Both the position numbers and the translations under genes were made by a program. DNA of 64,000 nt from Escherichia coli (lineage in GTDB: Bacteria > Pseudomonadota > Gammaproteobacteria > Enterobacterales > Enterobacteriaceae): NCBI RefSeq assembly GCF_030384885.1, contig NZ_CP128613.1; one strand, given 5' to 3'. The notes under the pieces were generated by a model. The model had not been told where the DNA came from, did not search any database, and saw nothing but the letters and a program-made list of their open reading frames with translations. The first letter of the stretch is position 1. Every line of letters starts with the position of its first letter. Shown here piece by piece: positions 668-64,000 of this stretch.

Positions 668-2749
668 TTACGCATTTGAGTAACGTTCTGTTTCTGGCAT
701 CCAGCGTTCTATCAGGGCTTTTGCCTGCTGTGGGTAACGTTCGTGAATATGGCGTGCCAGGCGCTGAACTTCCGGGATCATCGCCTGATCGCGCAGCAAA
801 TCCGCCACTTTAAATTCAGCATTACCCGTCTGACGCGTGCCTAACAATTCGCCAGGGCCGCGAATCTCCAGATCTTTCTGTGCAATCACAAAACCATCGT
901 TGCTGTCGCGCAGCACTTGCAGGCGAATTTGCGCCGTTTTAGAAAGCGGTGTTTTGTAGAGCAACACGCAGTGAGAAGCCACCGCGCCACGACCTACACG
1001 CCCGCGCAGCTGGTGTAACTGCGCCAGACCCAGACGCTCAGGGTTTTCGATAATCATCAGGCTGGCGTTAGGCACATCAACGCCGACTTCAATAACGGTC
1101 GTGGCAACCAGCAGGTGTAACTCGCCTTGTTTAAATGATGCCATGACGGCCTGCTTCTCGGCTGGTTTCATCCGTCCGTGTACCAGACCAACATTCAACT
1201 CTGGTAGCGCCAGTTTCAACTCTTCCCAGGTAGCTTCCGCCGCCTGTGCTTCCAGTAATTCTGATTCTTCAATGAGTGTGCACACCCAGTACGCCTGACG
1301 CCCTTCAGTCATACAGGCGTGGCGCACGCGGTCGATAATGTCGTTGCGGCGGGTATCCGGGATTGCCACTGTCGTCACTGGCGTGCGGCCTGGCGGCAGC
1401 TCATCTATCACCGAGGTATCGAGATCGGCATATGCAGTCATTGCCAGCGTGCGGGGGATCGGCGTGGCGGTCATGATCAACTGATGCGGATGGAAGCCCT
1501 GCTGCTGGCCTTTCTCCCATAACGCCAGACGCTGATGCACGCCAAAACGATGCTGTTCGTCGATAATCACCAGCGCCAGGCCGTTAAACTGCACCTGTTC
1601 CTGGAAGATGGCGTGTGTACCGACAATCATCTGCACCTGACCGCTGGCGATGGCTTCCTGCTGTGCCAGTCGTGCTTTACCTTTCTGTTTACCGGCGAGC
1701 CAGCCCACTTCGATACCGAGCGGAGCAAACCAGTTACGGAAGTTATTGGCGTGCTGCTCGGCGAGTAATTCGGTTGGTGCCATCAATGCCACCTGTTTGC
1801 CGTGCGCAATCGCACGCAACGCGGCGAGGGCGGCGACCAGCGTTTTACCGGAACCTACATCGCCCTGCACCAGGCGCATCATCGGCACATCCAGCGCCAT
1901 ATCGCGCTCGATCTCCGCCACCACGCGTGCCTGTGCGCCCGTTGGCTTGAACGGTAAGGCTGCGAGGAGTTTATTTTTCAGCGCGTCATTGGCGCTCAGC
2001 GGCTGGGCATGAAAACGCTGTGCTCCGGCACGTAAGGCTAACATGCTGAGGTTGTGCGCCAGCAACTCTTCCAGAATCAGCCGGCGTTGTGCCGGATGCT
2101 GCCCGGTTTCGAGATCGCTAAGCTGTAGCGTCGGCGGCGGGCGGTGCAAAGTGCGCAACGCTTCCGGTAGCGTCATCATTCCTTGTGACAGTTCCGGCGG
2201 CAGGAGTTCTTCAATAGCGCAGGTGTCGAGCAGATCCAGCGCCTGGTCGGTTAATTTACGCAGCGTGGCCTGCTTTACGCCTTCCGTAGTTGGGTAAACC
2301 GGCGTTAGCGTCTCCTGCAACTCTGGCATACTGAGATCGCCCTGCACGCGGTATTCCGGGTGGATCATCTCCGCACCATATTTACCGCGCTTTGCTTCGC
2401 CATAGGCCAGCACGCGGCGGCCAGTCGCCAGGCTATTTTTCATTGCCGCGTTGAAGTTGAAAAAGCGCATGGTGAGAATGCCGGAACCGTCGCTGATCTG
2501 GCAGGTCATCATCCGCCGACCGCCGAAGGAGATATTGCAATTCAGCACTTCGCCTTCCACCGTGGCATAAACGCCCGGCAGTAGTTCACCGATGGGGTAG
2601 AGATGGGTGCGATCTTCGTAGCGCAGAGGAAGGTGTAAGAGTAAATCCTGCACGGTATGCAGGTTGATTTTCGCCAGCTTGTTACTAAGCGCTGCACCAA
2701 CGCCCGTTAGGGAACTGAGCGGGACAGCATCTAACAGGCGACCTTTCAT
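668..2749 (-). CDS. recG: ATP-dependent DNA helicase RecG
   Basis: Translation matches RecG from MKGRLLDAVPLSSLTGVGAAL...; 693 aa from the second Met of the 704-aa ORF; GSGKT Walker A motif present. Confidence 0.97.
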   Translation of the reverse strand: MKGRLLDAVPLSSLTGVGAALSNKLAKINLHTVQDLLLHLPLRYEDRTHLYPIGELLPGVYATVEGEVLNCNISFGGRRMMTCQISDGSGILTMRFFNFNAAMKNSLATGRRVLAYGEAKRGKYGAEMIHPEYRVQGDLSMPELQETLTPVYPTTEGVKQATLRKLTDQALDLLDTCAIEELLPPELSQGMMTLPEALRTLHRPPPTLQLSDLETGQHPAQRRLILEELLAHNLSMLALRAGAQRFHAQPLSANDALKNKLLAALPFKPTGAQARVVAEIERDMALDVPMMRLVQGDVGSGKTLVAALAALRAIAHGKQVALMAPTELLAEQHANNFRNWFAPLGIEVGWLAGKQKGKARLAQQEAIASGQVQMIVGTHAIFQEQVQFNGLALVIIDEQHRFGVHQRLALWEKGQQQGFHPHQLIMTATPIPRTLAMTAYADLDTSVIDELPPGRTPVTTVAIPDTRRNDIIDRVRHACMTEGRQAYWVCTLIEESELLEAQAAEATWEELKLALPELNVGLVHGRMKPAEKQAVMASFKQGELHLLVATTVIEVGVDVPNASLMIIENPERLGLAQLHQLRGRVGRGAVASHCVLLYKTPLSKTAQIRLQVLRDSNDGFVIAQKDLEIRGPGELLGTRQTGNAEFKVADLLRDQAMIPEVQRLARHIHERYPQQAKALIERWMPETERYSNA

Positions 2750-2754
2750 GGCGC

Positions 2755-3444
2755 TTACCCTGCCGCCTGCATAGTGGCCCACCAGTCAGCATCGGCTTCA
2801 ATTTCGCCTTGCTGATTAACGTGGGGGTAAGGTAGGCCTTTGCGTTTTGCGACTTTCGCCAGCACCGGATAGCCGCCTTCAAACAACAGCCGTTGTTGCT
2901 CCGCTTCCGGCAACATGCTGTTTTCCCGCAGATACATGCCTGCGTTTTGCCGCTGGCGCTGGGCTTCGTAAAGAATAAGGGCTGAGGCAACGGAAACATT
3001 CAGCGACTGCACCATGCCGATCATCGGAATGATGATGTCCTGATCCGCCAGGGCTAACGCTTCCTGCGTGATACCCGTTTTCTCCTGACCCATCAAAATA
3101 CAGGTCGGGCGGGTGTAATCAATTTCGCGGAAATCGACAGCGTTATCAGAAAGATGTGTAGCCAGGATCTGCATTCCCTGGCCTTTCAGATGGGCAACGG
3201 CATCGCCAATGGTGCGGTGCGTTTTCACCTGTACCCAACTGTTGCTGCCAGCCGCAGCCGAAGCCATGGTGCGCATCCGGCTGCCAGGCCAGACGGCATG
3301 AACTTCATGTACGCCAACGGCATCTGCGGTACGAATAATCGCAGAAACGTTATGGGGTTTGTGGACCTGCTCCATGCAGACGGTCAGATCAGGCTGCCGC
3401 CTGGCGAGCATTTCGCAGATGCGTGCATAACGTGTTGGGTTCAT
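2755..3444 (-). CDS. trmH: tRNA (Gm18) 2'-O-methyltransferase TrmH (SpoU)
   Basis: 229-aa ORF MNPTRYARICEMLARRQPDL..., sitting between recG and spoT as in the spoT operon. Confidence 0.96.
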   Translation of the reverse strand: MNPTRYARICEMLARRQPDLTVCMEQVHKPHNVSAIIRTADAVGVHEVHAVWPGSRMRTMASAAAGSNSWVQVKTHRTIGDAVAHLKGQGMQILATHLSDNAVDFREIDYTRPTCILMGQEKTGITQEALALADQDIIIPMIGMVQSLNVSVASALILYEAQRQRQNAGMYLRENSMLPEAEQQRLLFEGGYPVLAKVAKRKGLPYPHVNQQGEIEADADWWATMQAAG

Positions 3445-3450
3445 AAAACA

Positions 3451-5559
3451 TTAATTTCGGTTTCGGGTGACTTTAATCACGTCTGGCATCACGCGGATTT
3501 TGCGCATGATATTCGCCAGATGCACACGGTCACGGGCGGTCAGACGAATAAAGGCGCTGTAGACGCGACCATCTTTTTCTTCTGTATTCAAACTTTGAAT
3601 ATTCGAGGTCGTGGTGTTAATTGCCGCCGTCAGGTTTGCCAGCGCGCCCTGATGATTGAACATCTCCACCTTGATTTCGGTGATGAACTCCTGTGCCGTC
3701 TCTTTATCCCATTCCACAGCCATAAATTTCTCTGGCTCTTTCTGGTAGCCACGGATGTTACGGCAGGATTCATGGTGGATCACCAGACCTTTACCGGGGC
3801 TGACGTGGGCGATAATCGGGTCGCCAGGAATGGGGCGGCAGCATTTCGCAAAGGTGATCAACACGCCATCAGCACCTTTAATCGGCAGATGCCCGTGGCT
3901 TTGAGTCGCCGGCGGAATGGAGGCGTCCCCATGTTGCATATTTTTCGCGACCACCACGCTCATTGCGTTACCAAGGCCGATTTCAGCCAGCAGATCGTCA
4001 AGCGTTGCCAGCTTCATGCGGTCCAGCTCGCGCTGAATATTTTCCGGCGGGATTTCATTGAGCTTACGGCTGCCACCCAACGCATGATTGAGCAGACGAC
4101 GGCCCAGGCTTACAGAATCATCACGCTTGAGGTTTTTCAGCAACTGACGAATTTTGGCGCGCGCTTTCGAGCTAACGACAAAGTTCAGCCACGCGGCGTT
4201 CGGGCGAGCGCCCGGTGCAGTAATGATTTCAACGGTTTGACCGCTGGTAAGCGGCTGCGACAGCGGGTAAGGCTGACGGTCGACGCGTGCGCCCACGCAG
4301 GCATGACCGATATCGGTATGTACCGCATAAGCGAAGTCGACAGGTGTTGCACCGGCAGGCAGCTCGACAATTCGCCCTTCCGGTGTGAAAACGTAAATCT
4401 CATCCGGGAAGAGATCGGATTTAACGCTCTCGATAAATTCAAACGAACTACCGGCGCTCTGTTGCAGCTCCAGCAGGCTTTGCATCCAGCGCTGGGCGCG
4501 AATTTGTGCGGTAGTACTGGTTTCGCCGTGCTCTTTATAAGCCCAGTGCGCGGCAACACCCATCTCTGCCATCTGATCCATATCTTCGGTACGGATCTGG
4601 ACTTCAACCGGCACGCCGTGCGGGCCAATCATCGAGGTGTGCAAAGACTGATAGCCGTTCGCTTTTGGAATGGCGATGTAGTCTTTCACGCGACCCGGAC
4701 GCGGCTTGTACAGGCTATGCATTTGCCCGAGCACGCGATAACAGGTGTCGGAATCATTGACGATCACGCGGAAGGCGTAGATGTCCATGATTGAGTGAAA
4801 ACGCTGCTCTTTGAGCACCATTTTGCAGTAGATCGAATAAAGATGCTTCTCGCGACCACTGACGCGGCACGGTATTCCCGCTTCCTGCAAACGCCCTTCG
4901 ATTTCCGAGAGGATTTTTTGGATCATCTCTTTACGGTTGCCGCGTGCGGCTTTCACCACTTCTTTGATTACGCGGTAACGGTTGGGATACAGCGCCTCAA
5001 AACCCAGCTCTTCGAGTTCGGTTTTAATGTGGTGGATACCTAAACGGTGTGCCAGCGGGCTGTAAATTTCGAGGGTTTCACGGGCGATGCGGCGACGTTT
5101 GTCCGGGCGAAGTGAGCCCAGCGTGCGCATGTTGTGGGTACGGTCGGCAAGTTTGATGAGAATGACGCGGATATCCTGCACCATCGCCATAATCATCTTG
5201 CGAAAGTTTTCGGCCTGCGCCTCTTTCTTATCGCGGAACTTGAGTTTATCAAGTTTCGACACCCCCTCTACCAGCTCGGCGACGCTTTTACCAAAAAGCT
5301 GTTCCATGTCCTGGTAGGTGGCGGGTGTATCTTCAATCACGTCATGCAGCAGCGCCGCCATTAGCGTTTCATAGTCGAGTTTCATCTCGGCCAGAATGCA
5401 GGCAACCGCTACCGGGTGCGTGATATAGGGTTCACCGCTTGAACGTGTTTGCCCCTCGTGAGCATCACGTGCAACGAGATACGCCTGCCGCAGACGCTTG
5501 ATTTGGTCTTCCGGCAGGTAGGTTTGAATCAGTTGATTCAGGCTTTCAAACAGATACAA
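3451..5559 (-). CDS. spoT: Bifunctional (p)ppGpp synthetase/hydrolase SpoT
   Basis: 702-aa ORF MYLFESLNQLIQTYLPEDQIKRLRQAY...; the start codon is TTG (caa on the + strand at 5557..5559), as known for spoT. Confidence 0.97.
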   Translation of the reverse strand: MYLFESLNQLIQTYLPEDQIKRLRQAYLVARDAHEGQTRSSGEPYITHPVAVACILAEMKLDYETLMAALLHDVIEDTPATYQDMEQLFGKSVAELVEGVSKLDKLKFRDKKEAQAENFRKMIMAMVQDIRVILIKLADRTHNMRTLGSLRPDKRRRIARETLEIYSPLAHRLGIHHIKTELEELGFEALYPNRYRVIKEVVKAARGNRKEMIQKILSEIEGRLQEAGIPCRVSGREKHLYSIYCKMVLKEQRFHSIMDIYAFRVIVNDSDTCYRVLGQMHSLYKPRPGRVKDYIAIPKANGYQSLHTSMIGPHGVPVEVQIRTEDMDQMAEMGVAAHWAYKEHGETSTTAQIRAQRWMQSLLELQQSAGSSFEFIESVKSDLFPDEIYVFTPEGRIVELPAGATPVDFAYAVHTDIGHACVGARVDRQPYPLSQPLTSGQTVEIITAPGARPNAAWLNFVVSSKARAKIRQLLKNLKRDDSVSLGRRLLNHALGGSRKLNEIPPENIQRELDRMKLATLDDLLAEIGLGNAMSVVVAKNMQHGDASIPPATQSHGHLPIKGADGVLITFAKCCRPIPGDPIIAHVSPGKGLVIHHESCRNIRGYQKEPEKFMAVEWDKETAQEFITEIKVEMFNHQGALANLTAAINTTTSNIQSLNTEEKDGRVYSAFIRLTARDRVHLANIMRKIRVMPDVIKVTRNRN

Positions 5560-18659: not shown

Positions 18660-18700
18660 ATCAGTATTCAGGTAGCTGTTGAGCCTGGGGCGGTAGCGTG
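18660..18700 (+). promoter_or_regulatory. JUMPstart region with ops element (RfaH recruitment site) in the waaQ leader
   Basis: GGCGGTAGCGTG at 18689..18700 matches the ops consensus GGCGGTAGnnTG on the non-template strand upstream of waaQ. Confidence 0.85.
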
Positions 18701-53801: not shown

Positions 53802-54011
53802 ATGGGCAAATTAGGTGAAAACGTTCCGCTTCTTATCGATAAAGCTGTAGATTTCATGGCATCGAGCCAGGCGTTCCGGGAGTATCTGAAAAAACTTCCT
53901 CCCCGCAATGCGATTCCATCCGGAATACCTGATGAAAGCGTGCCGTTATATCTACAACGTCTGGAGTATTATCGTCGGCTTTATCGGCCGAAACAGGTAG
54001 AGGAGAAGTAA
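53802..54011 (+). CDS. yibT: Small protein YibT
   Basis: 69-aa [37 protein letters not shown]... in the yibL-mtlR gap, where yibT lies in K-12. Confidence 0.75.
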
Positions 54012-54021
54012 GCGAAAGTAC

Positions 54022-54609
54022 TTACTTTTGAAAGGCTTTTTTTAAGCTGATTTTGGAAATCAGCTCTGTCAGTGAAAGGACCATTGTTGATCGCACAGCC
54101 TGTTGGTAACGCTGAATTTGCATTGCATACAAACTGGAGTCTGCGGGTTCAAACTGTGGCGGCGGTGGTAACGCCGCCACACAGTGCAGCTCACCAAAGG
54201 GGCCAAGAATTTCGTCGTCGGTAAAGGCGTACTCATTGCCGTCGTGATTTAGTTCTTCACGCAATGCCATCAGCAGTTCCGCATCTTCATATTCATGGCG
54301 GTTAATGACACCCAACCCGTAAATGAGTTTTAAACGCACAGAAAGATCGCCCAGCGGGCCATCGCCGTCGAGTAACGGTTCTACAGCATACTTCACCGCG
54401 TAATCGTCTTTGCGGAATACCTGAAGCACCAGAAGATTTACCGCCTCGGTCAAAAGCTCGACGGCGGTAATCAGAAAGCTTCGCACGGTTTTGCCAGCAT
54501 TCAGACGCTCAAGCACACGGTTTTCAAAGGCCTGGGTTTGTTCCATTGTTGCCTGCATATCTGACAATCTGTTATTCGGGCGCAGGGAGTCCTGCGCCTG
54601 GTCCACCAT
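54022..54609 (-). CDS. mtlR: Mannitol operon repressor MtlR
   Basis: 195-aa [56 protein letters not shown]... Confidence 0.96.
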   Translation of the reverse strand: MVDQAQDSLRPNNRLSDMQATMEQTQAFENRVLERLNAGKTVRSFLITAVELLTEAVNLLVLQVFRKDDYAVKYAVEPLLDGDGPLGDLSVRLKLIYGLGVINRHEYEDAELLMALREELNHDGNEYAFTDDEILGPFGELHCVAALPPPPQFEPADSSLYAMQIQRYQQAVRSTMVLSLTELISKISLKKAFQK

Positions 54610-55757
54610 TATTGCATTGCTTTATAAGCGGTTACCGCCTCGGATACAACCTCGCTGTTTGCATCAAGGCCAGAAATCTGCGCCAGTGCGGCTTGCGGGC
54701 CTTTGTTGGCGATCAGTGCTGCCAGTTCCTGAGCCTGCGGATCATCTTCACTGCGGAAGTGCATTGCAGCGGCAATACCTTCAATCAGGTTTTTATGTGG
54801 CAGACCATATTCCAGCGTTCCGAGCAGTGGCTTGATCAGACGGTCGCCAGCACTCAGTTTACGCAGCGGCTGACGGCCTACGCGCTCTACATCGTCTTTC
54901 AGATACGGGTTCTCAAAACGACCAAGGATTTTCTGGATGTACGCCGCATGTTTGTCCGCGTCAAAACCGTAACGCTTAATCAGTACAGCGCCACTTTCTT
55001 CCATCGCCCCTTTTACTACCGCGCGGATTTTCTCGTCGAGAATTGCGTCACGAATGGTCTGATGACCTGCCAGTTTTCCGAGGTACGCGGTTATAGCATG
55101 ACCTGTATTCAGGGTGAAGAGTTTACGCTCAACAAATGCCATCAGGTTGTCGGTTAACTCCATGCCTGGGATGTTCGGCAGTGCACCTTTGAACTGGGTT
55201 TTATCGACAATCCATTCGCTGAAGGTTTCGACTGTCACTTCCAGCGGATCGTTCGTTGCCGAAGCGGAAGGCGGTACGATGCGGTCAACGGCGGAATCCA
55301 CAAAGCCAACGTGTTCTTCTACCCACGCTTTGGCGTCTTCTGGCAGGGCGTTCATCACATGGCCTTTCAGTTGCGTGGTGCCGCGTACCATGTTTTCACA
55401 GGCGATAATGTTCAGTGGGGATTCATTACCTTGTTCTTCACGTTTCACCAGCCCTTTGGCGATTGCCGGAGCAATACGTTCCAGCACAACCGGGCCCACG
55501 GCGGTAGTGACTAAATCAACCTGAGCAATCAGATCAACGACATCATCACCAATGCTGCTGACAGCATTGACGCCAGAAACGGTATCTACCTGCTCGGTTT
55601 CACCGACCACATGAACCTGATAGCTATGACGGGCATTCAGGGCATCAAGTACCACCTGATTGACATCGGCAAACGTCAGTTGGATACCCGCGTCTGCCAG
55701 CAGTTTACCGATAAAGCCACGACCGATATTACCTGCGCCAAAATGTAATGCTTTCAT
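54609..55757 (-). CDS. mtlD: Mannitol-1-phosphate 5-dehydrogenase
   Basis: 382 aa from [34 protein letters not shown]...; the ORF track reads 88 codons upstream through the REP region; the ATG at 55755..55757 was checked. Confidence 0.96.
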
Positions 55758-55789
55758 AGTATTAACCTTCATCAATGTTTTTACCCGAG

Positions 55790-55980
55790 AGGGCTGGGGT
55801 GAGGCTTTTCCCTCACCCAAACCCTCTCCATGTGGAGAGGAGCCGCGCCGGATGCGGCGCAAACGCCTTATCCGGCCTACAAGAACGTGCAAATTCAACA
55901 AATTGTGCTTTGTTTTGTAGGCCTGATAAGCGTAGCGCATCAGGCAATTAGCCCCACCGTCTCCATGTGGAGAGAGTGGG
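55790..55980. repeat. REP/BIME cluster in the mtlA-mtlD intergenic region
   Basis: gccggatgcggcgcaaacgccttatccggcctacaag ... tgtaggcctgataagcgtagcgcatcaggc, plus ccctctccatgtggagag palindromes. Confidence 0.85.
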
Positions 55981-55986
55981 GTTGGA

Positions 55987-57900
55987 TTACTTACGACCTG
56001 CCAGCAGTTCCAGTACTTCATCTACGCTGGTGGTGTGCGCCAGACGCTCGATGACGGACTCATCATCCAGTGCGTTGGTCAGGCTGGTGATCACCTGAAT
56101 GTGCTCGTTGTTACGGGCAGCAATACCAATCACCAGGCGGGCAATGTCATCTTCTTCTTCACCGAAGCGCACGCCTTCCGGGTACTGGCAGAACACCACG
56201 CCCGTTTTCAGTACGCGATCTTTCGCTTCAACCGTACCGTGCGGTACCGCGATGGACTCACCCAGATAAGTCGGGGTCAGTTTTTCACGATCCAGCATTG
56301 CCTGAACGTATTCCGGCTCAACGTAACCACCTTTCACCAGCTGCTCGCCAGCAAAACGAATCGCTTCTTCTTTGGTGGCCGCTTTGCGACCGAGGAAGAT
56401 GTTTTCCGCACCCAGTTTGAAGAGGTTAGCACTGGAATCGTCAAAGCTGTCTTTCAGACTGTCTTTCACTTTTACTTCGTTTTCAGTATGGCGCTGGGCA
56501 GCAACCAGACGTTCGGTCAGGCTGGTGTACAGGCCGCTGTCGAGGAAGTTGGTCAGCGAAATATGCTGTGCCTGCGGAACCTGGCGCATAGCGCGTTCGG
56601 TCAGGTCACGGTGAGTGATGACCAGGTCCACATCTGGCGGCAGGTTGTTGATCGCGCTGTTAGTAACAGAAATCTGCGACAGACCTGCATCCTGAATTTT
56701 CTTACGCAGCACACCTGCGCCCATCGCACTGGAACCCATACCGGCATCACAGGCAACGATGATTTTACGGACGTGGCTCAGGTCGTTAGTCACATCGCCC
56801 GCAGACAGCGGAGACGCACCTTTAGACTCAGCTTTCATGTCCTGCATACGACGAGTTGCTGCTTCAATATCATCTTCATCTTTCACTTTGCTGGTTTTCA
56901 GCAGAATGGCAGAGACAACGAAGGAGACTGCCATCGCCGCACACACACCCGCGATGTTAGCGAAGTAAGCACCTTTTGGCGTCATCGCCAGTACCGCAAG
57001 GATAGAGCCCGGAGATGCCGGAGAAACCAGACCACCGCCCAGGATAGTCAGCGTGAACACGCCAGTCATACCGCCGAGGATAACGGCCAGAATCAGACGC
57101 GGATTCATCAGCACATACGGGAAGTAGATTTCGTGGATACCCCCCAGGAAGTGAATGATTGCCGCACCGCCCGCAGACTGTTTAGCGCTACCACGGCCAA
57201 AGAACATGTACGCCAGCAGAACACCCATACCCGGACCTGGGTTAGCTTCAATCAGGAAGAAGATGGATTTACCCAGTTCATGGGACTGCTGAATACCCAG
57301 CGGCGAGAAGATACCGTGGTTAATGGCGTTGTTGAGGAACAGGATTTTCGCCGGTTCAACAAAGATAGACGCCAGCGGCAGCATGTCATGGACAACCATG
57401 AAGTTAACGCCCGCAGCCAGCATTTTGGACAGGGCTTCAACAATTGGGCCAATGCCGAGGAACGCCAGAATAGCGAGGATCATCCCGATGATGCCAGCGG
57501 AGAAGTTATTCACCAGCATCTCAAAACCGGATTTGATCTTACCGTCTACCCAGCGGTCGAAGTGCTTAATGCACCAGCCGCCCAGCGGACCTGCAATCAT
57601 AGAACCGAGGAACATCGGCATATCTGCGCCGACGATAACGCCCATTGTGGTGATGGCACCGACTACGCCGCCACGTTCGCCGCCTACCAGCTTACCACCG
57701 GTATAACCGATCAGTAGTGGCAGGAGATAAGTGATCATCGGCCCGACCAGCTTCGCCAGCGTTTCGTTCGGTAACCACCCTGTTGGAATAAATAATGCGG
57801 TGATAATACCCCACGCGATAAACGCGCCGATATTTGGCATCACCATGTTGCTGAGGAAACGACCAAAGCTTTGCACTTTGATCTTAATATCGGATGACAT
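55987..57900 (-). CDS. mtlA: PTS mannitol-specific EIICBA component
   Basis: 637-aa [40 protein letters not shown]... Confidence 0.98.
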
Positions 57901-58039
57901 AAAAACACCCCTTCTTATGTTTGCTGTCGCGCAGGCTGGAAGCCCGAGGTTTTTTGTTAATGTGGCGGCAGAGGTAGCCGGACCTTGTGGATAGTGCGAA
58001 ATCTGGCACTGAATCGGTTAACTGTCCAGTCGACGGCTT

Positions 58040-58265
58040 TTTGTGTGATATGAATCACATAAATATAGGGGGTAGAGAGGTAATTGACGTGATATACATC
58101 ACAAAATACTTGTGTAAAAAAGCAACAAGACGACGATTTTCGCTAAAAATGGCATTTAAATGTGAGTAATGTCACATTTTTGTTTTGTTAGTTTGTTGAA
58201 TCTTTGTGATCTGAATCACAAGATATTTTCTTACGGCGTTCACCTGATGTGATCTGCAGCATGTT
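58040..58265. promoter_or_regulatory. mtl promoter region with clustered CRP-binding sites
   Basis: TGTGA-N6-TCACA matches at 58044..58059 (tgtgatatgaatcaca), 58089..58104 (gtgatatacatcacaa) and 58205..58220 (tgtgatctgaatcaca), plus a half-site at ~58248. Confidence 0.85.
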
Positions 58266-58436
58266 ATGCCTTCGTCATAAAATCGTTATGTAACTAAGCA
58301 ACTCATAACCTCTAAAAATTATTCTTTGGTGTTATGGCGAGAATCGCGAACCCGAATTATTGTCAAAATATCAGCCTGACTCCCTTCTGGCTGCCAGCCA
58401 AAAAACAACACCGATAAACGTGAATCCGAGGCAGAT

Positions 58437-58799
58437 ATGTTTCTAAACTATTTCGCGTTGGGAGTGCTGATCTTCGTCTTTCTGGTGATTTTTTATGGAA
58501 TCATCGCGATACATGACATCCCTTATCTGATTGCCAAAAAGCGCAATCACCCCCATGCCGACGCTATTCATACGGCGGGCTGGGTGAGCCTGTTTACTCT
58601 GCATGTTATCTGGCCGTTCCTGTGGATCTGGGCGACGCTCTATCAACCGGAGCGTGGCTGGGGTATGCAGTCACATGTTGCGTCGCAGGAGAAAGCGACT
58701 GACCCGGAAATCGCCGCACTTTCTGACCGAATTTCCCGGCTGGAGCATCAACTCGCCGCCGAGAAAAAGACTGACTATTCCACGTTCCCGGAGATCTAA
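58437..58799 (+). CDS. yibI: DUF3302 inner membrane protein YibI
   Basis: 120-aa [48 protein letters not shown]... Confidence 0.92.
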
Positions 58800-58801
58800 A
58801 T

Positions 58802-59938
58802 ATGGATCTATTGATTGTTTTAACTTACGTGGCGCTGGCGTGGGCGGTCTTTAAAATCTTCCGCATTCCGGTAAATCAGTGGACGCTGGCGACGGCGGCG
58901 CTGGGAGGCGTGTTTCTGGTGAGTGGTTTGATTTTGTTGATGAACTACAACCACCCTTACACTTTTACCGCACAGAAAGCGGTGATTGCTATTCCCATCA
59001 CGCCACAGGTGACGGGGATCGTGACTGAAGTCACTGACAAGAATAATCAGCTTATTCAGAAGGGCGAGGTGCTTTTTAAGCTCGACCCGGTACGTTATCA
59101 GGCGCGAGTCGACAGGCTTCAGGCTGACCTGATGACGGCGACGCATAATATAAAGACACTGCGCGCGCAGCTCACTGAAGCGCAAGCCAATACCACCCAG
59201 GTTTCAGCGGAGCGTGACCGCTTGTTTAAAAATTATCAACGTTACCTGAAAGGCAGCCAGGCGGCGGTAAATCCGTTCTCGGAACGTGACATCGACGATG
59301 CGCGGCAAAACTTCCTCGCGCAGGATGCGCTGGTGAAAGGTTCGGTGGCGGAACAGGCGCAAATCCAGAGCCAGCTCGACAGTATGGTTAACGGTGAGCA
59401 GTCGCAGATTGTCAGCTTAAGGGCGCAGCTTACTGAAGCAAAATATAACCTTGAGCAGACCGTCATTCGCGCGCCGAGCAATGGCTACGTTACTCAGGTA
59501 CTGATCCGCCCAGGTACATACGCAGCTGCCTTGCCGCTACGTCCGGTGATGGTTTTCATCCCCGAGCAAAAACGGCAAATTGTCGCCCAATTTCGGCAGA
59601 ACTCGCTGTTACGTCTGAAACCCGGCGATGATGCGGAAGTGGTGTTTAACGCGCTACCTGGGCAGGTGTTCCACGGCAAACTGACTAGTATTTTACCTGT
59701 CGTGCCAGGCGGTTCGTATCAGGCGCAGGGGGTACTGCAATCATTAACGGTCGTACCCGGCACGGACGGTGTGCTGGGAACCATCGAACTGGACCCTAAC
59801 GATGATATCGATGCCTTACCCGACGGCATCTACGCCCAGGTGGCAGTTTACTCCGACCATTTCAGCCATGTTTCGGTGATGCGGAAGGTGCTGCTAAGAA
59901 TGACCAGTTGGATGCATTATCTTTATTTGGATCATTGA
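58802..59938 (+). CDS. yibH: HlyD-family membrane fusion protein YibH
   Basis: 378-aa ORF with an N-terminal TM helix and coiled coils, adjacent to yibI. Confidence 0.92.
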
Positions 59939-60395
59939 GGGGGGCGGGGGAGATTATGGAACTTTGCTCCCTGCAAGGACTAATTATTTTTGCATATTAT
60001 TTCATCGGCTGTGATGATTTTTCGTTAATATCCATTATGTTAAGAAGTTCGGGATGAGTGTGAACTCATTGGATTTTTTATCCGTCTTGATCTGCCGAAG
60101 GATCAGACTATACATTGTCGAGATCGCAATGATGATATGAGTTGTTCCTCTGCCACGACTCTAATCAAAAAAGAGCAGGAGTGCTTTTCCATCTATTGCG
60201 ATGATGGCTTTATTATCTGAAGGATGACAATCACATTTAAAAATATATAATTTATAGATCACAATATAGGTTCATGGAATATATGTATACAACTATTTTT
60301 CTCTTCACTTTTAATTATCGCATTCATTATAACACTAAGTTAAAAAAACTCCTGGAGAGTGAGTTATTAATATATTTTTAAATATAATTAAGTTA

Positions 60396-60917
60396 TTATT
60401 CATCGATGCATTTTATAGAATCATCAATGGCTACAATAGTACTATTAACTCTCCAATTTATATTTTTATTATCATTGCAAATATTAACTGAATCTATATC
60501 AATGATTTTTCTATTTTTATCTTTTATTTTATTTACAGTTTCAATGCAATCAGCGACAAGTTGGTGTGGATTTAGATTCTTCAGATATGGTCTTATGATC
60601 TTTCCCTTGCTTAATAAATAGCATGTATAGGATTCGGAAAGTCCAGCATCTATTTTGTACATCATTATTCTAGATAAGGATGTGAGAAATGCCTTGTTAT
60701 CATTAGCAGCCATATATGCCAGTCCGAGTTCAGCCTCTGCGGCTTTACATGAAAAATAGCTAAATGAACACGCTTTTCGTCCCTCTTGGGTACTGGCTGA
60801 TATTAGTGCCCATAATATTGCCTTGTCTGCCAAATCCAACTCTCTCTGAAATTGGTTTACAGTAACTGCATTCGCAGAAATAGAGAAAAAAAGCACAATT
60901 GTTAATAACCTTGCCAT
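60396..60917 (-). CDS. Putative secreted immunity protein for the orphan Rhs toxin tip
   Basis: 173-aa, very AT-rich ORF starting 4 nt after the stop of the orphan rhs fragment; N-terminal signal peptide (MARLLTIVLFFSISANA); immunity role inferred from position. Confidence 0.6.
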   Translation of the reverse strand: MARLLTIVLFFSISANAVTVNQFQRELDLADKAILWALISASTQEGRKACSFSYFSCKAAEAELGLAYMAANDNKAFLTSLSRIMMYKIDAGLSESYTCYLLSKGKIIRPYLKNLNPHQLVADCIETVNKIKDKNRKIIDIDSVNICNDNKNINWRVNSTIVAIDDSIKCIDE

Positions 60918-60921
60918 ATTT

Positions 60922-62334
60922 CTAGTCCGTCACTGTTAATGTGCTATCTGGCTCTGAAAATATTAGCCCATTTAATTTTTGCATGTCATTAGATGAACCA
61001 GTTATACAACCCTCGGAACAGAATCGAGGTCCTAAAGATGGACCAAAAGCGTTTAAACAACTATGTGTTAAAAATCCATCACGATTATACGTTTCTGTAT
61101 TTGCTGACGGTACTAAACGTATACCATTAGGTTTTCTATTAGTTGCTCCAGGACCATTAACATTCCAGGTCCATACCCCTTGAGGTATTGGGCCTCTATT
61201 TTGTAAGTGTGTACAACCAGGATTATTTTTACATTGCATATTATTACCATTATTACCAGAGGCGACTGAAATAGTAAGCACACCATAAGAATTATCATCA
61301 CTTGGCGTATCTGAAACGCATGAAAGCATACCTAAAGTTATGCTGTATAAACAGGTCGCTAATCCCAACGGGTCAATATCAGTTATCGGATTCAACGGAT
61401 ACTGATAAAAATTCCATCCCCCCTTCAGCCCAATCGGATCCTGAGTGATATACCGCCCCTGCAGCGGGTCATAATAGCGGTGGCGGTTGTAATACAGGCC
61501 GGACTCCTCATCATACTGCTGACCCGGCAGGCGGATGAGCTGCTGCAGCTGGTGCGGGTTCTCTTCATTCAGCAGGTTGCCCCATTCATCATATTCTGCG
61601 TACCACGCTGTTGCCCCTTCCGTGCTGACAAGCGCCAGCGGCAGGCCGCGATGGTCGCAGTGGTACAGGTGGATTTTTCGCGCCGGCGTGTACACCGGGT
61701 CCATCTGGTTTTGCATCTGCTCCACCGTCAGGCCGCACGATGCCAGCCAGCGGCGGCTTTCCTCACTCACCCGGTCAGCCAGGATTTCACTTTCCAGCCG
61801 GTCGAGCATCTGCACCAGCACCGGCGGGAACACCACATGGCCTCCGTCTTCGCCGCCGGACTGCTGAAGGGCATCCGCCAGGCTGCGGCGCTGCGTTTTC
61901 GCCAGCTCACCGGTGGCGGTTTCGACCCTGATGAGTGGCGTGAAACTTCCCGGCAGGTATACCGTCTGGATGCGGGTTCTGTCGTTCTGTATCGTGGTCA
62001 GCCGGTCGCCATCCCAGCCGTACCAGGTCACTTCCGGTTTCCTTGACAGCGACATCCAGCCCGTCAGGTCCCGTTCACGCCGCCACACCCGTTTTGCCAC
62101 CCTGCGGCCCAGCGGGTCGTAAAGATAGCGACTTTCGACCAGCGGCTCTGCATATTGTGTCCGCGTGTAGTGCACCAGCCGGTGCCGGCTGTCGTAATGG
62201 TACCGGTGAGTCCGCTCATCATCCGTGCGGATAACCCCTTCCGGGATGAGGTCGGTTTTCTCCGTCAGCCTGCCGTGACGGTCATACCGGTAAAGATAGT
62301 GCGCGTCACGGGCGATACGGTTATCCGGCCACAT
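60922..62334 (-). CDS. Orphan Rhs C-terminal fragment: core repeats plus alternative toxin tip
   Basis: N-terminal ~320 aa identical to the upstream rhs 3' region (YD-repeat core ending ...[27 protein letters not shown]); followed by a ~145-aa divergent, low-GC C-terminal domain containing THSC...SEGCITG. Confidence 0.85.
61385..62133. repeat. Direct repeat copy A (rhs core 3' segment), identical to 63252..64000
   Basis: The identical antisense ORFs 61480..62046 and 63347..63913 (188 aa) and direct base comparison show an offset of 1867 bp; identity runs to the window edge. Confidence 0.9.
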
Positions 62335-62447
62335 GCTGAGGGTGCTGTCCGGGTGCAGCTCCGGGTCGGGCAGGCGGTTACCTGCCGGGTCTGTTGCATA
62401 CGGGATATCAATGCCCAGGTTACATATAATAATAAGAGCAATTAACT

Positions 62448-62774
62448 TTATTTATTTATAATGCGCTTACTTAATACAAACCATTGAATATACCCTCCTG
62501 ACAGAAAATAAAGCCATATTATTATCGCCATAATATACTTGCTATCAATTCTTACGCCAATAATGTCTGAAATACTCCCTATAAATATTAGAGCAATAAA
62601 GAATACTATGCCTGTTGGAAAACATATTACCATCATTCCATAAGACATGAGACTAATTAACTCGCTCACATCACGAGTGGAGTCTAATAGTGAAAGTCTA
62701 TGCATGGAAAAGAATAGCATTAAAAGTGATAACGCCAGCCATATAGCTCTGAATGAAAAAATAATATATTTCAT
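62448..62774 (-). CDS. Putative membrane immunity protein for the primary Rhs toxin tip
   Basis: 108-aa AT-rich ORF with about three hydrophobic helices; its ATG overlaps the rhs TAA stop by 1 nt (TAATG), suggesting translational coupling. Confidence 0.65.
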
Positions 62775-64000
62775 TACATCACTCCGGTGAATACAAATCT
62801 AATAAAACGTCCAATGTTATTTCCGGAGCACTTCATCTTACATGTTTCTAAAGAATCATTAGACCAGTCTTGGCAGTTTTTAAATAGCCCTAAATTTATA
62901 GGTGTGAATATATCAGGCAATACAGAATAACGCGGCCTTACCTCTTTAAATTTCCCTTTTAAACAGTTCTCCACACAACTATTATCGGTTTCAACGAGGT
63001 CACAACGGCCAGCAGCTTCTTTTGTATCATTACTTGCTTTACCTGGCCCCCATAGACCATCTCCTTTTGATTCTCCCCGTTGGTCTTGGCCACCACAAGT
63101 ATAGTCCCCTTTACCATCTGGGACACAAAGATATTGATGATAGAACGGATTCCCCCATATATCTGGACCGCTTCTTTCACCAGTTCCGCCCATTGAATGC
63201 AGTGGCTTAATGCATTTTAGTGTTTCTAATCCTAATGGATCTATATTTGAGATCGGATTCAACGGATACTGATAAAAATTCCATCCCCCCTTCAGCCCAA
63301 TCGGATCCTGAGTGATATACCGCCCCTGCAGCGGGTCATAATAGCGGTGGCGGTTGTAATACAGGCCGGACTCCTCATCATACTGCTGACCCGGCAGGCG
63401 GATGAGCTGCTGCAGCTGGTGCGGGTTCTCTTCATTCAGCAGGTTGCCCCATTCATCATATTCTGCGTACCACGCTGTTGCCCCTTCCGTGCTGACAAGC
63501 GCCAGCGGCAGGCCGCGATGGTCGCAGTGGTACAGGTGGATTTTTCGCGCCGGCGTGTACACCGGGTCCATCTGGTTTTGCATCTGCTCCACCGTCAGGC
63601 CGCACGATGCCAGCCAGCGGCGGCTTTCCTCACTCACCCGGTCAGCCAGGATTTCACTTTCCAGCCGGTCGAGCATCTGCACCAGCACCGGCGGGAACAC
63701 CACATGGCCTCCGTCTTCGCCGCCGGACTGCTGAAGGGCATCCGCCAGGCTGCGGCGCTGCGTTTTCGCCAGCTCACCGGTGGCGGTTTCGACCCTGATG
63801 AGTGGCGTGAAACTTCCCGGCAGGTATACCGTCTGGATGCGGGTTCTGTCGTTCTGTATCGTGGTCAGCCGGTCGCCATCCCAGCCGTACCAGGTCACTT
63901 CCGGTTTCCTTGACAGCGACATCCAGCCCGTCAGGTCCCGTTCACGCCGCCACACCCGTTTTGCCACCCTGCGGCCCAGCGGGTCGTAAAGATAGCGACT
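62774..64000 (-). CDS. Rhs family protein, 3' end (core C-terminus plus toxin tip); 5' end outside window
   Basis: ORF open to the window edge; YD-repeat core ending ...[27 protein letters not shown], then a ~150-aa Cys-rich, low-GC C-terminal domain. Confidence 0.88.
63252..64000. repeat. Direct repeat copy B (rhs core 3' segment)
   Basis: Identical to 61385..62133; truncated by the window edge. Confidence 0.9.

Follow-up and report, generated by a model that had tools for sequence, protein, structure and literature searches.

What does the Rhs fragment at the right end of this stretch of Escherichia coli DNA encode, and can the product be put to use? The stretch analyzed here (the window) comprises 64,000 nucleotides (nt) of contig NZ_CP128613.1, and at its right end lies the E. 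coli rhsA-position locus, which is flanked by yibF and by yibH-yibI-mtlADR. Behind the main rhs gene of this locus lies an orphan Rhs open reading frame (ORF), in which a piece of the Rhs core is joined to a C-terminal toxin tip, and an immunity gene follows. An earlier note, based on the letters of the sequence alone, had proposed that this tip is a periplasm-acting toxin that targets the cell wall. We found that the tip is almost certainly a Tlde1-family domain with the L,D-transpeptidase fold. The profile matches, the fold, the residue conservation, the topology and the genomic setting all speak for the proposed role, and we regard it as likely that the toxin would attack peptidoglycan in the periplasm after delivery by Rhs and a type VI secretion system (T6SS), be neutralized by its Imm57 partner and be activated by tip switching. 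The cassette is laid out as follows (all on the minus strand).

60396-60917: Imm57-family immunity gene (173 amino acids [aa]; Pfam PF15596), encoding a predicted periplasmic antidote
60867-60917: immunity-protein signal peptide, MARLLTIVLFFSISANA, with A-N-A preceding the predicted cleavage site, called by n-, h- and c-region heuristics
60922-62334: orphan Rhs ORF (470 aa), core fragment followed by the tip, from the ORF list
60922-61359: Rhs C-terminal tip, a 145-aa domain assigned to the Tlde1/DUF2778 L,D-transpeptidase fold by profile and fold, plus the stop codon
60991-61083: region of the catalytic motif, R-x5-H ... S-E-G-C-I-T, with the His encoded at 61063-61065 and the Cys at 61006-61008
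61360-61374: DPLGL motif, the Rhs core/tip boundary; homology to the main rhs gene ends at 61359, and the GC content drops there
61359-62406: core fragment of the orphan Rhs, which is one of the two copies of a 1,048-bp direct repeat, from blastn and the RHS_core profile

The orphan tip matches the Tlde1 family in profile and fold

The interval 60396-61360, which the earlier note had singled out, proved to consist of the immunity gene and a 145-aa tip that starts right after DPLGL. In the Pfam search, the orphan ORF matched Tlde1_dom (PF10908, formerly DUF2778) with an E value of 4.6e-6 (27.5 bits), and the tip alone did so with an E value of 3.5e-7 (31.1 bits) over model positions 10-100 of 120. 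An exhaustive HMMER search yielded 177 representative relatives of the tip, including full-length Rhs proteins (1,378-1,570 aa) ending in the domain and stand-alone proteins of 120-150 aa. A family alignment was built from 64 homologous sequences, 56 of which matched Tlde1_dom at E<=0.001, the best at 1e-15. Furthermore, a 99.4%-identical copy of the tip has already been named "tlde1 domain-containing protein" by RefSeq. NCBIfam returned a model for the Rhs core and none for the tip or Imm57, and neither of the two was matched by PADLOC.

The earlier note had likened the tip both to YkuD-type L,D-transpeptidases and to Tlde1-like effectors. The latter half of this comparison is borne out by the profile; the former is not, since the tip gave no match to Pfam YkuD (PF03734) even at E<=10 and carries SEGC rather than SHGC. 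Among the 64 relatives, only 4 matched YkuD at E<=0.001. Thus, the tip is a relative of the canonical YkuD L,D-transpeptidases and not a member of the family: the fold is common to both, but the profile match is lacking and a Glu occupies the position of the motif His.

The fold itself was examined with an AlphaFold model of the tip computed from the 64-sequence alignment, which reached a predicted local distance difference test score (pLDDT) of 93.8 and a predicted template modeling score of 0.89. When the model was submitted to Foldseek, all of the top 30 matches were proteins of the L,D-transpeptidase (YkuD-like) beta-sandwich fold, as the earlier note had anticipated, and the best of them were the L,D-carboxypeptidases Pgp2 and Csd6 and the Salmonella effector Tlde1a.

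Catalytic residues and cysteines of the tip

The motif from which the earlier note had started, a His followed by S-x-G-C-I-T, was located at residues 418-448 of the orphan ORF (window nt 60991-61083, minus strand), where the Cys lies 19 residues and the Ser 16 residues beyond the His. A scan of all six frames of the window (127,996 codons) found the pattern H-x(8,22)-[ST]-x-G-C-[IV] at the tip and nowhere else, and the bare core [ST]xGC[IV] at two sites; the statistical support for the identity of the tip comes from the profile and fold matches and not from this count. In tip numbering, G56, L82, H99, S115, G117 and C118 are invariant in the 64-sequence alignment, and R93 is present in at least 90% of the sequences. 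A profile-to-sequence alignment placed R93, H99, S115, G117 and C118 opposite R115, H121, S128, G130 and C131 of Tlde1a, an enzyme that takes D-Ala4 off tetrapeptide stems and puts other D-amino acids in its place; its H121A and C131A substitutions abolish periplasmic toxicity (Sibinelli-Sousa et al. 2020).

The loop between His and Cys is extended in the Rhs-linked clade, and the two Cys that flank the extra segment were found only there. Seven Cys are invariant in this clade in all, a number that suggests three disulfides and one catalytic thiol, with the pairing presumed.

A predicted exported Imm57 protein accompanies the tip

The immunity ORF, which starts 4 nt past the toxin stop codon, matched the whole Pfam Imm57 model (PF15596) with an E value of 3.7e-44 and is named "Imm57 family immunity protein" by RefSeq (WP_000113245.1). 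The cleavable signal peptide noticed earlier was recovered by heuristic rules for the n-, h- and c-regions and for small residues at -3 and -1. The protein begins with MARLLTIVLFFSISANA, which divides into MAR, LLTIVLFFSIS and ANA before VT. The n-region contains an Arg, the 11 residues of the hydrophobic core score ~2-2.9 on the Kyte-Doolittle scale, and both -3 and -1 are occupied by Ala. Orthologues with 25-51% identity, from Ralstonia, from a metagenome (downstream of a 1,385-aa Rhs) and from P0205, have signal peptides too, ending in TLA, AMA or ASA, and their mature parts retain six Cys. The mature protein contains six Cys: C50, C57, C99, C124 and C170 are invariant in the alignment, and C147 is retained in all aligned sequences but one degraded E. 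coli variant. The toxin and Imm57 genes are also adjacent in both loci examined elsewhere (Ralstonia and the metagenome Rhs locus). An exported and probably disulfide-bonded antidote fits a toxin that acts in the periplasm.

The AlphaFold model of Imm57 is all-alpha (pLDDT 84.7), and the signal-peptide segment has low pLDDT. A Foldseek search of this model against the PDB gave generic helical repeats as its best match (E=1.1), hence no significant neighbor and no functional lead; Imm57 is a family without a solved structural relative. A promoter scan of the region found one 9-of-12 sigma-70-like site at 60989-60960 (minus strand), within the 3' end of the tip and upstream of imm57, and it was given no weight because the density of such sites equals the shuffled expectation.

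The metagenome contig, Ga0436465_0019936 (L006, 1363-3003 and 4085-8791), encodes the 1,385-aa Rhs with a Tlde1-type tip together with Imm57. There the rhs gene adjoins genes of type II secretion system (T2SS)-like or pilin character (T2SSF, T2SSG/N_methyl) and not T6SS genes, a hint that export may take a different route in some lineages.

The orphan tip can be switched onto a full-length Rhs

As encoded, the tip has no delivery module. The RHS_core profile has 1261 positions, of which the orphan ORF matches no more than 937-1261, in agreement with its designation as an orphan in the earlier note, and its core DNA (62406-61359) aligns in blastn with the main rhs gene (nt 2695-3742) at 98.7% identity, without gaps over 1,048 bp. 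The two copies form a direct repeat with a spacing of 1,867 bp, and the nominal ATG of the orphan (62334) falls within the homology to main rhs. All features of an orphan cassette were found: a 5'-truncated core, the PxxxxDPxGL boundary, a GC drop, an immunity gene of its own and a full-length rhs gene upstream. The core has a GC content of 60%, compared with 38% for the tip and 34% for the immunity gene, as is usual where an Rhs core meets its tip.

Two natural isolates bear on the use of such a cassette. Strain 6409 (NZ_CP010371) is identical to the window across bases 54000-64000, and its main rhs gene, of which the window holds the 3' part only, measures 4,194 nt and encodes a PAAR-type N terminus. 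Strain Ec73552 (NZ_CP151643; L004, 7623-11801) has the same flanking genes as strain 6409, with some protein accessions identical. At this locus, it carries a single Rhs of 1,392 aa with a PAAR-type N terminus, the first 1,155 residues of which equal the main Rhs of strain 6409, while its tip is the orphan tip and an identical Imm57 follows. The Ec73552 locus equals that of strain 6409 minus exactly 1,867 bp, so that the RhsC-type tip and ybfB are gone, and there is one private Ala-to-Val change. Since the difference equals the spacing of the direct repeats, it is the product expected of recombination between them. These data indicated that the orphan tip can replace the main tip by recombination over the common core, the direction of the event being presumed, and the fusion in Ec73552 marks the orphan as a spare that can take the place of the tip on the delivery module. 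The pair of strains may capture tip switching in the wild, a change that would alter which kin a strain can kill or resist.

The main gene and its immunity gene occupy the rest of the locus (both on the minus strand).

62448-62774: main Rhs immunity gene (YbfB-like, 108 aa, hydrophobic), named "protein YbfB" by RefSeq in the identical strain 6409
62774-64000: 3' part of the main rhs gene with its RhsC-type tip; the frame is open up to the window edge, and the second repeat copy starts at 63226

The main Rhs tip, 150 aa beyond DPLGL, is Cys-rich and of RhsC type (window 62448-63225 including the immunity gene, minus strand). Neither this tip nor its YbfB-like antidote matched Pfam even at E<=10. 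It is an uncharacterized toxin, for which the membrane-looking antidote hints at an envelope target as well. In another strain, CFSAN061771 (L001, 10176-11312), an ISAs1-family transposase has inserted in the orphan core fragment and left the Tlde1 tip as a separate ORF of 135 aa, and in that form RefSeq calls it "tlde1 domain-containing protein."

Elsewhere in the window, a JUMPstart RNA element unrelated to the Rhs cassette lies at 18662-18700 on the plus strand (Rfam RF01707, 55 bits, E=6e-10), the sole Rfam match at gathering level.

Proposed mode of action and alternatives

We propose that the cassette is a silent orphan toxin-immunity unit at the distal end of the rhs locus, made up of the last ~350 shell residues, the tip and the Imm57 gene. 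Homologous recombination over the 1,048-bp repeat would delete 1,867 bp, remove the resident tip together with ybfB and join the Tlde1 tip to the full-length PAAR-Rhs. Presumably, a T6SS would then fire the recombined Rhs, and the tip, freed from the shell, would act in the periplasm of the target cell. There, the Cys118/His99 pair would attack, as its predicted target, the bond between meso-diaminopimelate and D-Ala in the tetrapeptide stems of peptidoglycan, and the wall would be weakened by L,D-carboxypeptidase activity, by D-amino-acid exchange or by both. Imm57, predicted to be exported by the Sec pathway and disulfide bonded in the periplasm, would neutralize the tip; in a strain that carries only the orphan, it may also protect against kin that have switched.

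Several observations weigh against this proposal, and our literature search turned up no experiments on an Rhs-borne Tlde1 or on Imm57/yibV. The first group of observations concerns the chemistry. The second His of the SHGC motif (H129 of Tlde1a) is replaced by Glu116 in the tip (SEGC), which is invariant in the close clade, and the His-Cys spacing of 19 compares with 10 in Tlde1a and ~14 in the stand-alone relatives; chemistry or substrate may therefore differ from those of Tlde1a. Among the wider relatives, the Glu116 column holds E, K, A, Q, T, N, R or H, and a column this variable does not define the family. A search of PDB sequences with the 64-sequence profile retrieved L,D-transpeptidases and Tlde1a, with weak E values of 0.16-0.8. 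The tip could have the L,D-transpeptidase fold and yet a substrate unlike that of Tlde1a, such as the link between Lpp and peptidoglycan (as for DpaA/LdtF), 3-3 cross-links cut by an L,D-endopeptidase or the substrates of a general transpeptidase. We consider this unlikely, though still the strongest of the alternatives, given that the best structural matches are L,D-carboxypeptidases and Tlde1a and that the conserved R93 corresponds to R115 of Tlde1a, which is linked to D-amino-acid exchange. The present analysis does not discriminate between these candidate activities. A bolder version of the same idea, which we hold as a tentative and rather doubtful one, is that the Rhs-borne clade forms a functionally distinct branch directed at another envelope bond than that cut by Tlde1a, e.g., 3-3 cross-links or the Lpp-peptidoglycan link. 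It draws on the SEGC motif, the His-Cys loop that is longer by 9 residues than in Tlde1a and flanked by a clade-specific Cys pair, the three putative disulfides, the probable lack of a capping insert and the structurally unprecedented Imm57.

The second group concerns the state of the cassette, which could instead be a decaying, nonfunctional remnant that is neither expressed nor used, its likeness to Tlde1 being historical. The orphan lacks the PAAR domain and ~900 shell residues, so that the toxin is undeliverable as encoded. There is no Shine-Dalgarno-like sequence, and no visible ribosome-binding site, ahead of the ATG at 62334, and in strain 6409, which is identical here, the orphan is flagged by RefSeq as a pseudogene with an unannotated tip. 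Among 5,426 complete E. coli genomes, 130 have the tip allele of the window (>=99% identity), and ~3,500 (~65%) have a diverged allele with ~87% identity; in the genomes sampled, the latter is labeled only "RHS repeat-associated core domain-containing protein." In K-12 (L003, 7640-8681), the diverged allele corresponds to the pseudogenes yibS and yibW plus yibV. A frameshift disrupts the tip (yibS/yibW) there, the invariant G56 is changed (G56W), and another frameshift, in yibV, removes the signal peptide of the immunity protein. These three K-12 y-genes are thereby explained as the wreck of a Tlde1/Imm57 cassette. That the commonest state in E. coli is a diverged allele, frameshifted in K-12 and, in the genomes sampled, annotated as an incomplete Rhs gene, suggests weak selection. 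For the window allele, decay is nevertheless improbable, more so than a change of substrate. Both of its frames are intact, with G56, L82, H99, S115, G117, C118 and all seven Cys in place; the signal peptide of Imm57 is intact as well; an identical tip sits on a full-length Rhs in the near-identical strain Ec73552; and silence until recombination is the normal condition of orphan Rhs cassettes rather than a sign of decay.

Finally, the idea that the Cys/His motif arose by chance and that the tip is an unrelated toxin (e.g., a nuclease or an ADP-ribosyltransferase acting in the cytoplasm, as most Rhs tips do) has next to no chance of being right: a short motif alone is weak evidence, and single-sequence phmmer of the tip against PDB sequences gave irrelevant weak matches only (gelation factor), but the Tlde1_dom profile and the fold matches refute it as far as computation allows.

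Comparison with known systems

The YkuD-type enzymes LdtMt2, Ldtfm, E. coli LdtD/YcbB, Csd6 and Pgp2 have the catalytic fold and the Cys/His chemistry in common with the tip, and its His-Cys spacing of 19 lies within their canonical range. Unlike these housekeeping enzymes, the tip has no Pfam YkuD match and no peptidoglycan-binding or accessory domains, and it would be a weapon on a secreted carrier, whereas they are residents of the periplasm.

In layout and route of activation, the window cassette resembles the orphan Rhs cassettes of Salmonella Typhimurium, in which a core fragment, a tip and an immunity gene reportedly lie downstream of a full-length rhs gene and are activated by recombination across the core sequence that the two have in common. 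The Salmonella switch is said to have been selected in laboratory evolution and its toxin to act in the cytoplasm. In contrast, the switch described here distinguishes two natural isolates, and a periplasmic site of action is predicted for the toxin.

The closest characterized effector is Tlde1a of Salmonella Typhimurium (STM14_0336, formerly Tae5; PDB 7UMA), a T6SS effector with L,D-carboxypeptidase and D-amino-acid exchange activities. The tip is only ~20% identical to it and rides on an Rhs carrier, whereas Tlde1a is a stand-alone protein of 173 aa; SEGC with a spacing of 19 stands against SHGC with 10; the 145-aa tip probably lacks the capping insert of Tlde1a; and the antidotes differ, Imm57 being all-alpha and that of Tlde1a being the DUF2195 protein Tldi1a.

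The kind of system found here, a Tlde1 tip paired with Imm57, is already known from Pfam, RefSeq and the literature. In the catalogue of Zhang et al. (2012), Tox-LD-peptidase toxins appear together with RHS repeats, an association with T6SS, and Imm16/Imm57 as immunity proteins. Rhs-DUF2778 fusions were reported in 11% of the genomes of the third subfamily, with WP_052983304.1 of Shigella sonnei as an example and the link to Imm57 cited (Sibinelli-Sousa et al. 2020, preprint). The window cassette is the same thing as these Tox-LD-peptidase/Imm57 pairs and the Rhs-DUF2778 fusions of the Tae7/Tlde1c group: an L,D-peptidase domain at the C terminus of an Rhs protein, in beta- and gamma-proteobacteria, with Imm57 adjoining. 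A motif-level guess made from raw sequence thus agrees with an established family, and the result is a confirmation rather than a discovery. What the analysis documents is that an intact allele exists and that in one natural isolate a full-length Rhs has taken up the cassette, within an experimentally untouched subclade of putative peptidoglycan-targeting Rhs toxins, most characterized Rhs tips being cytoplasmic. Relative to the catalogue entries in the literature searched, the orphan state, the natural recombinant, the clade-specific pattern of seven Cys and the K-12 remnants are new.
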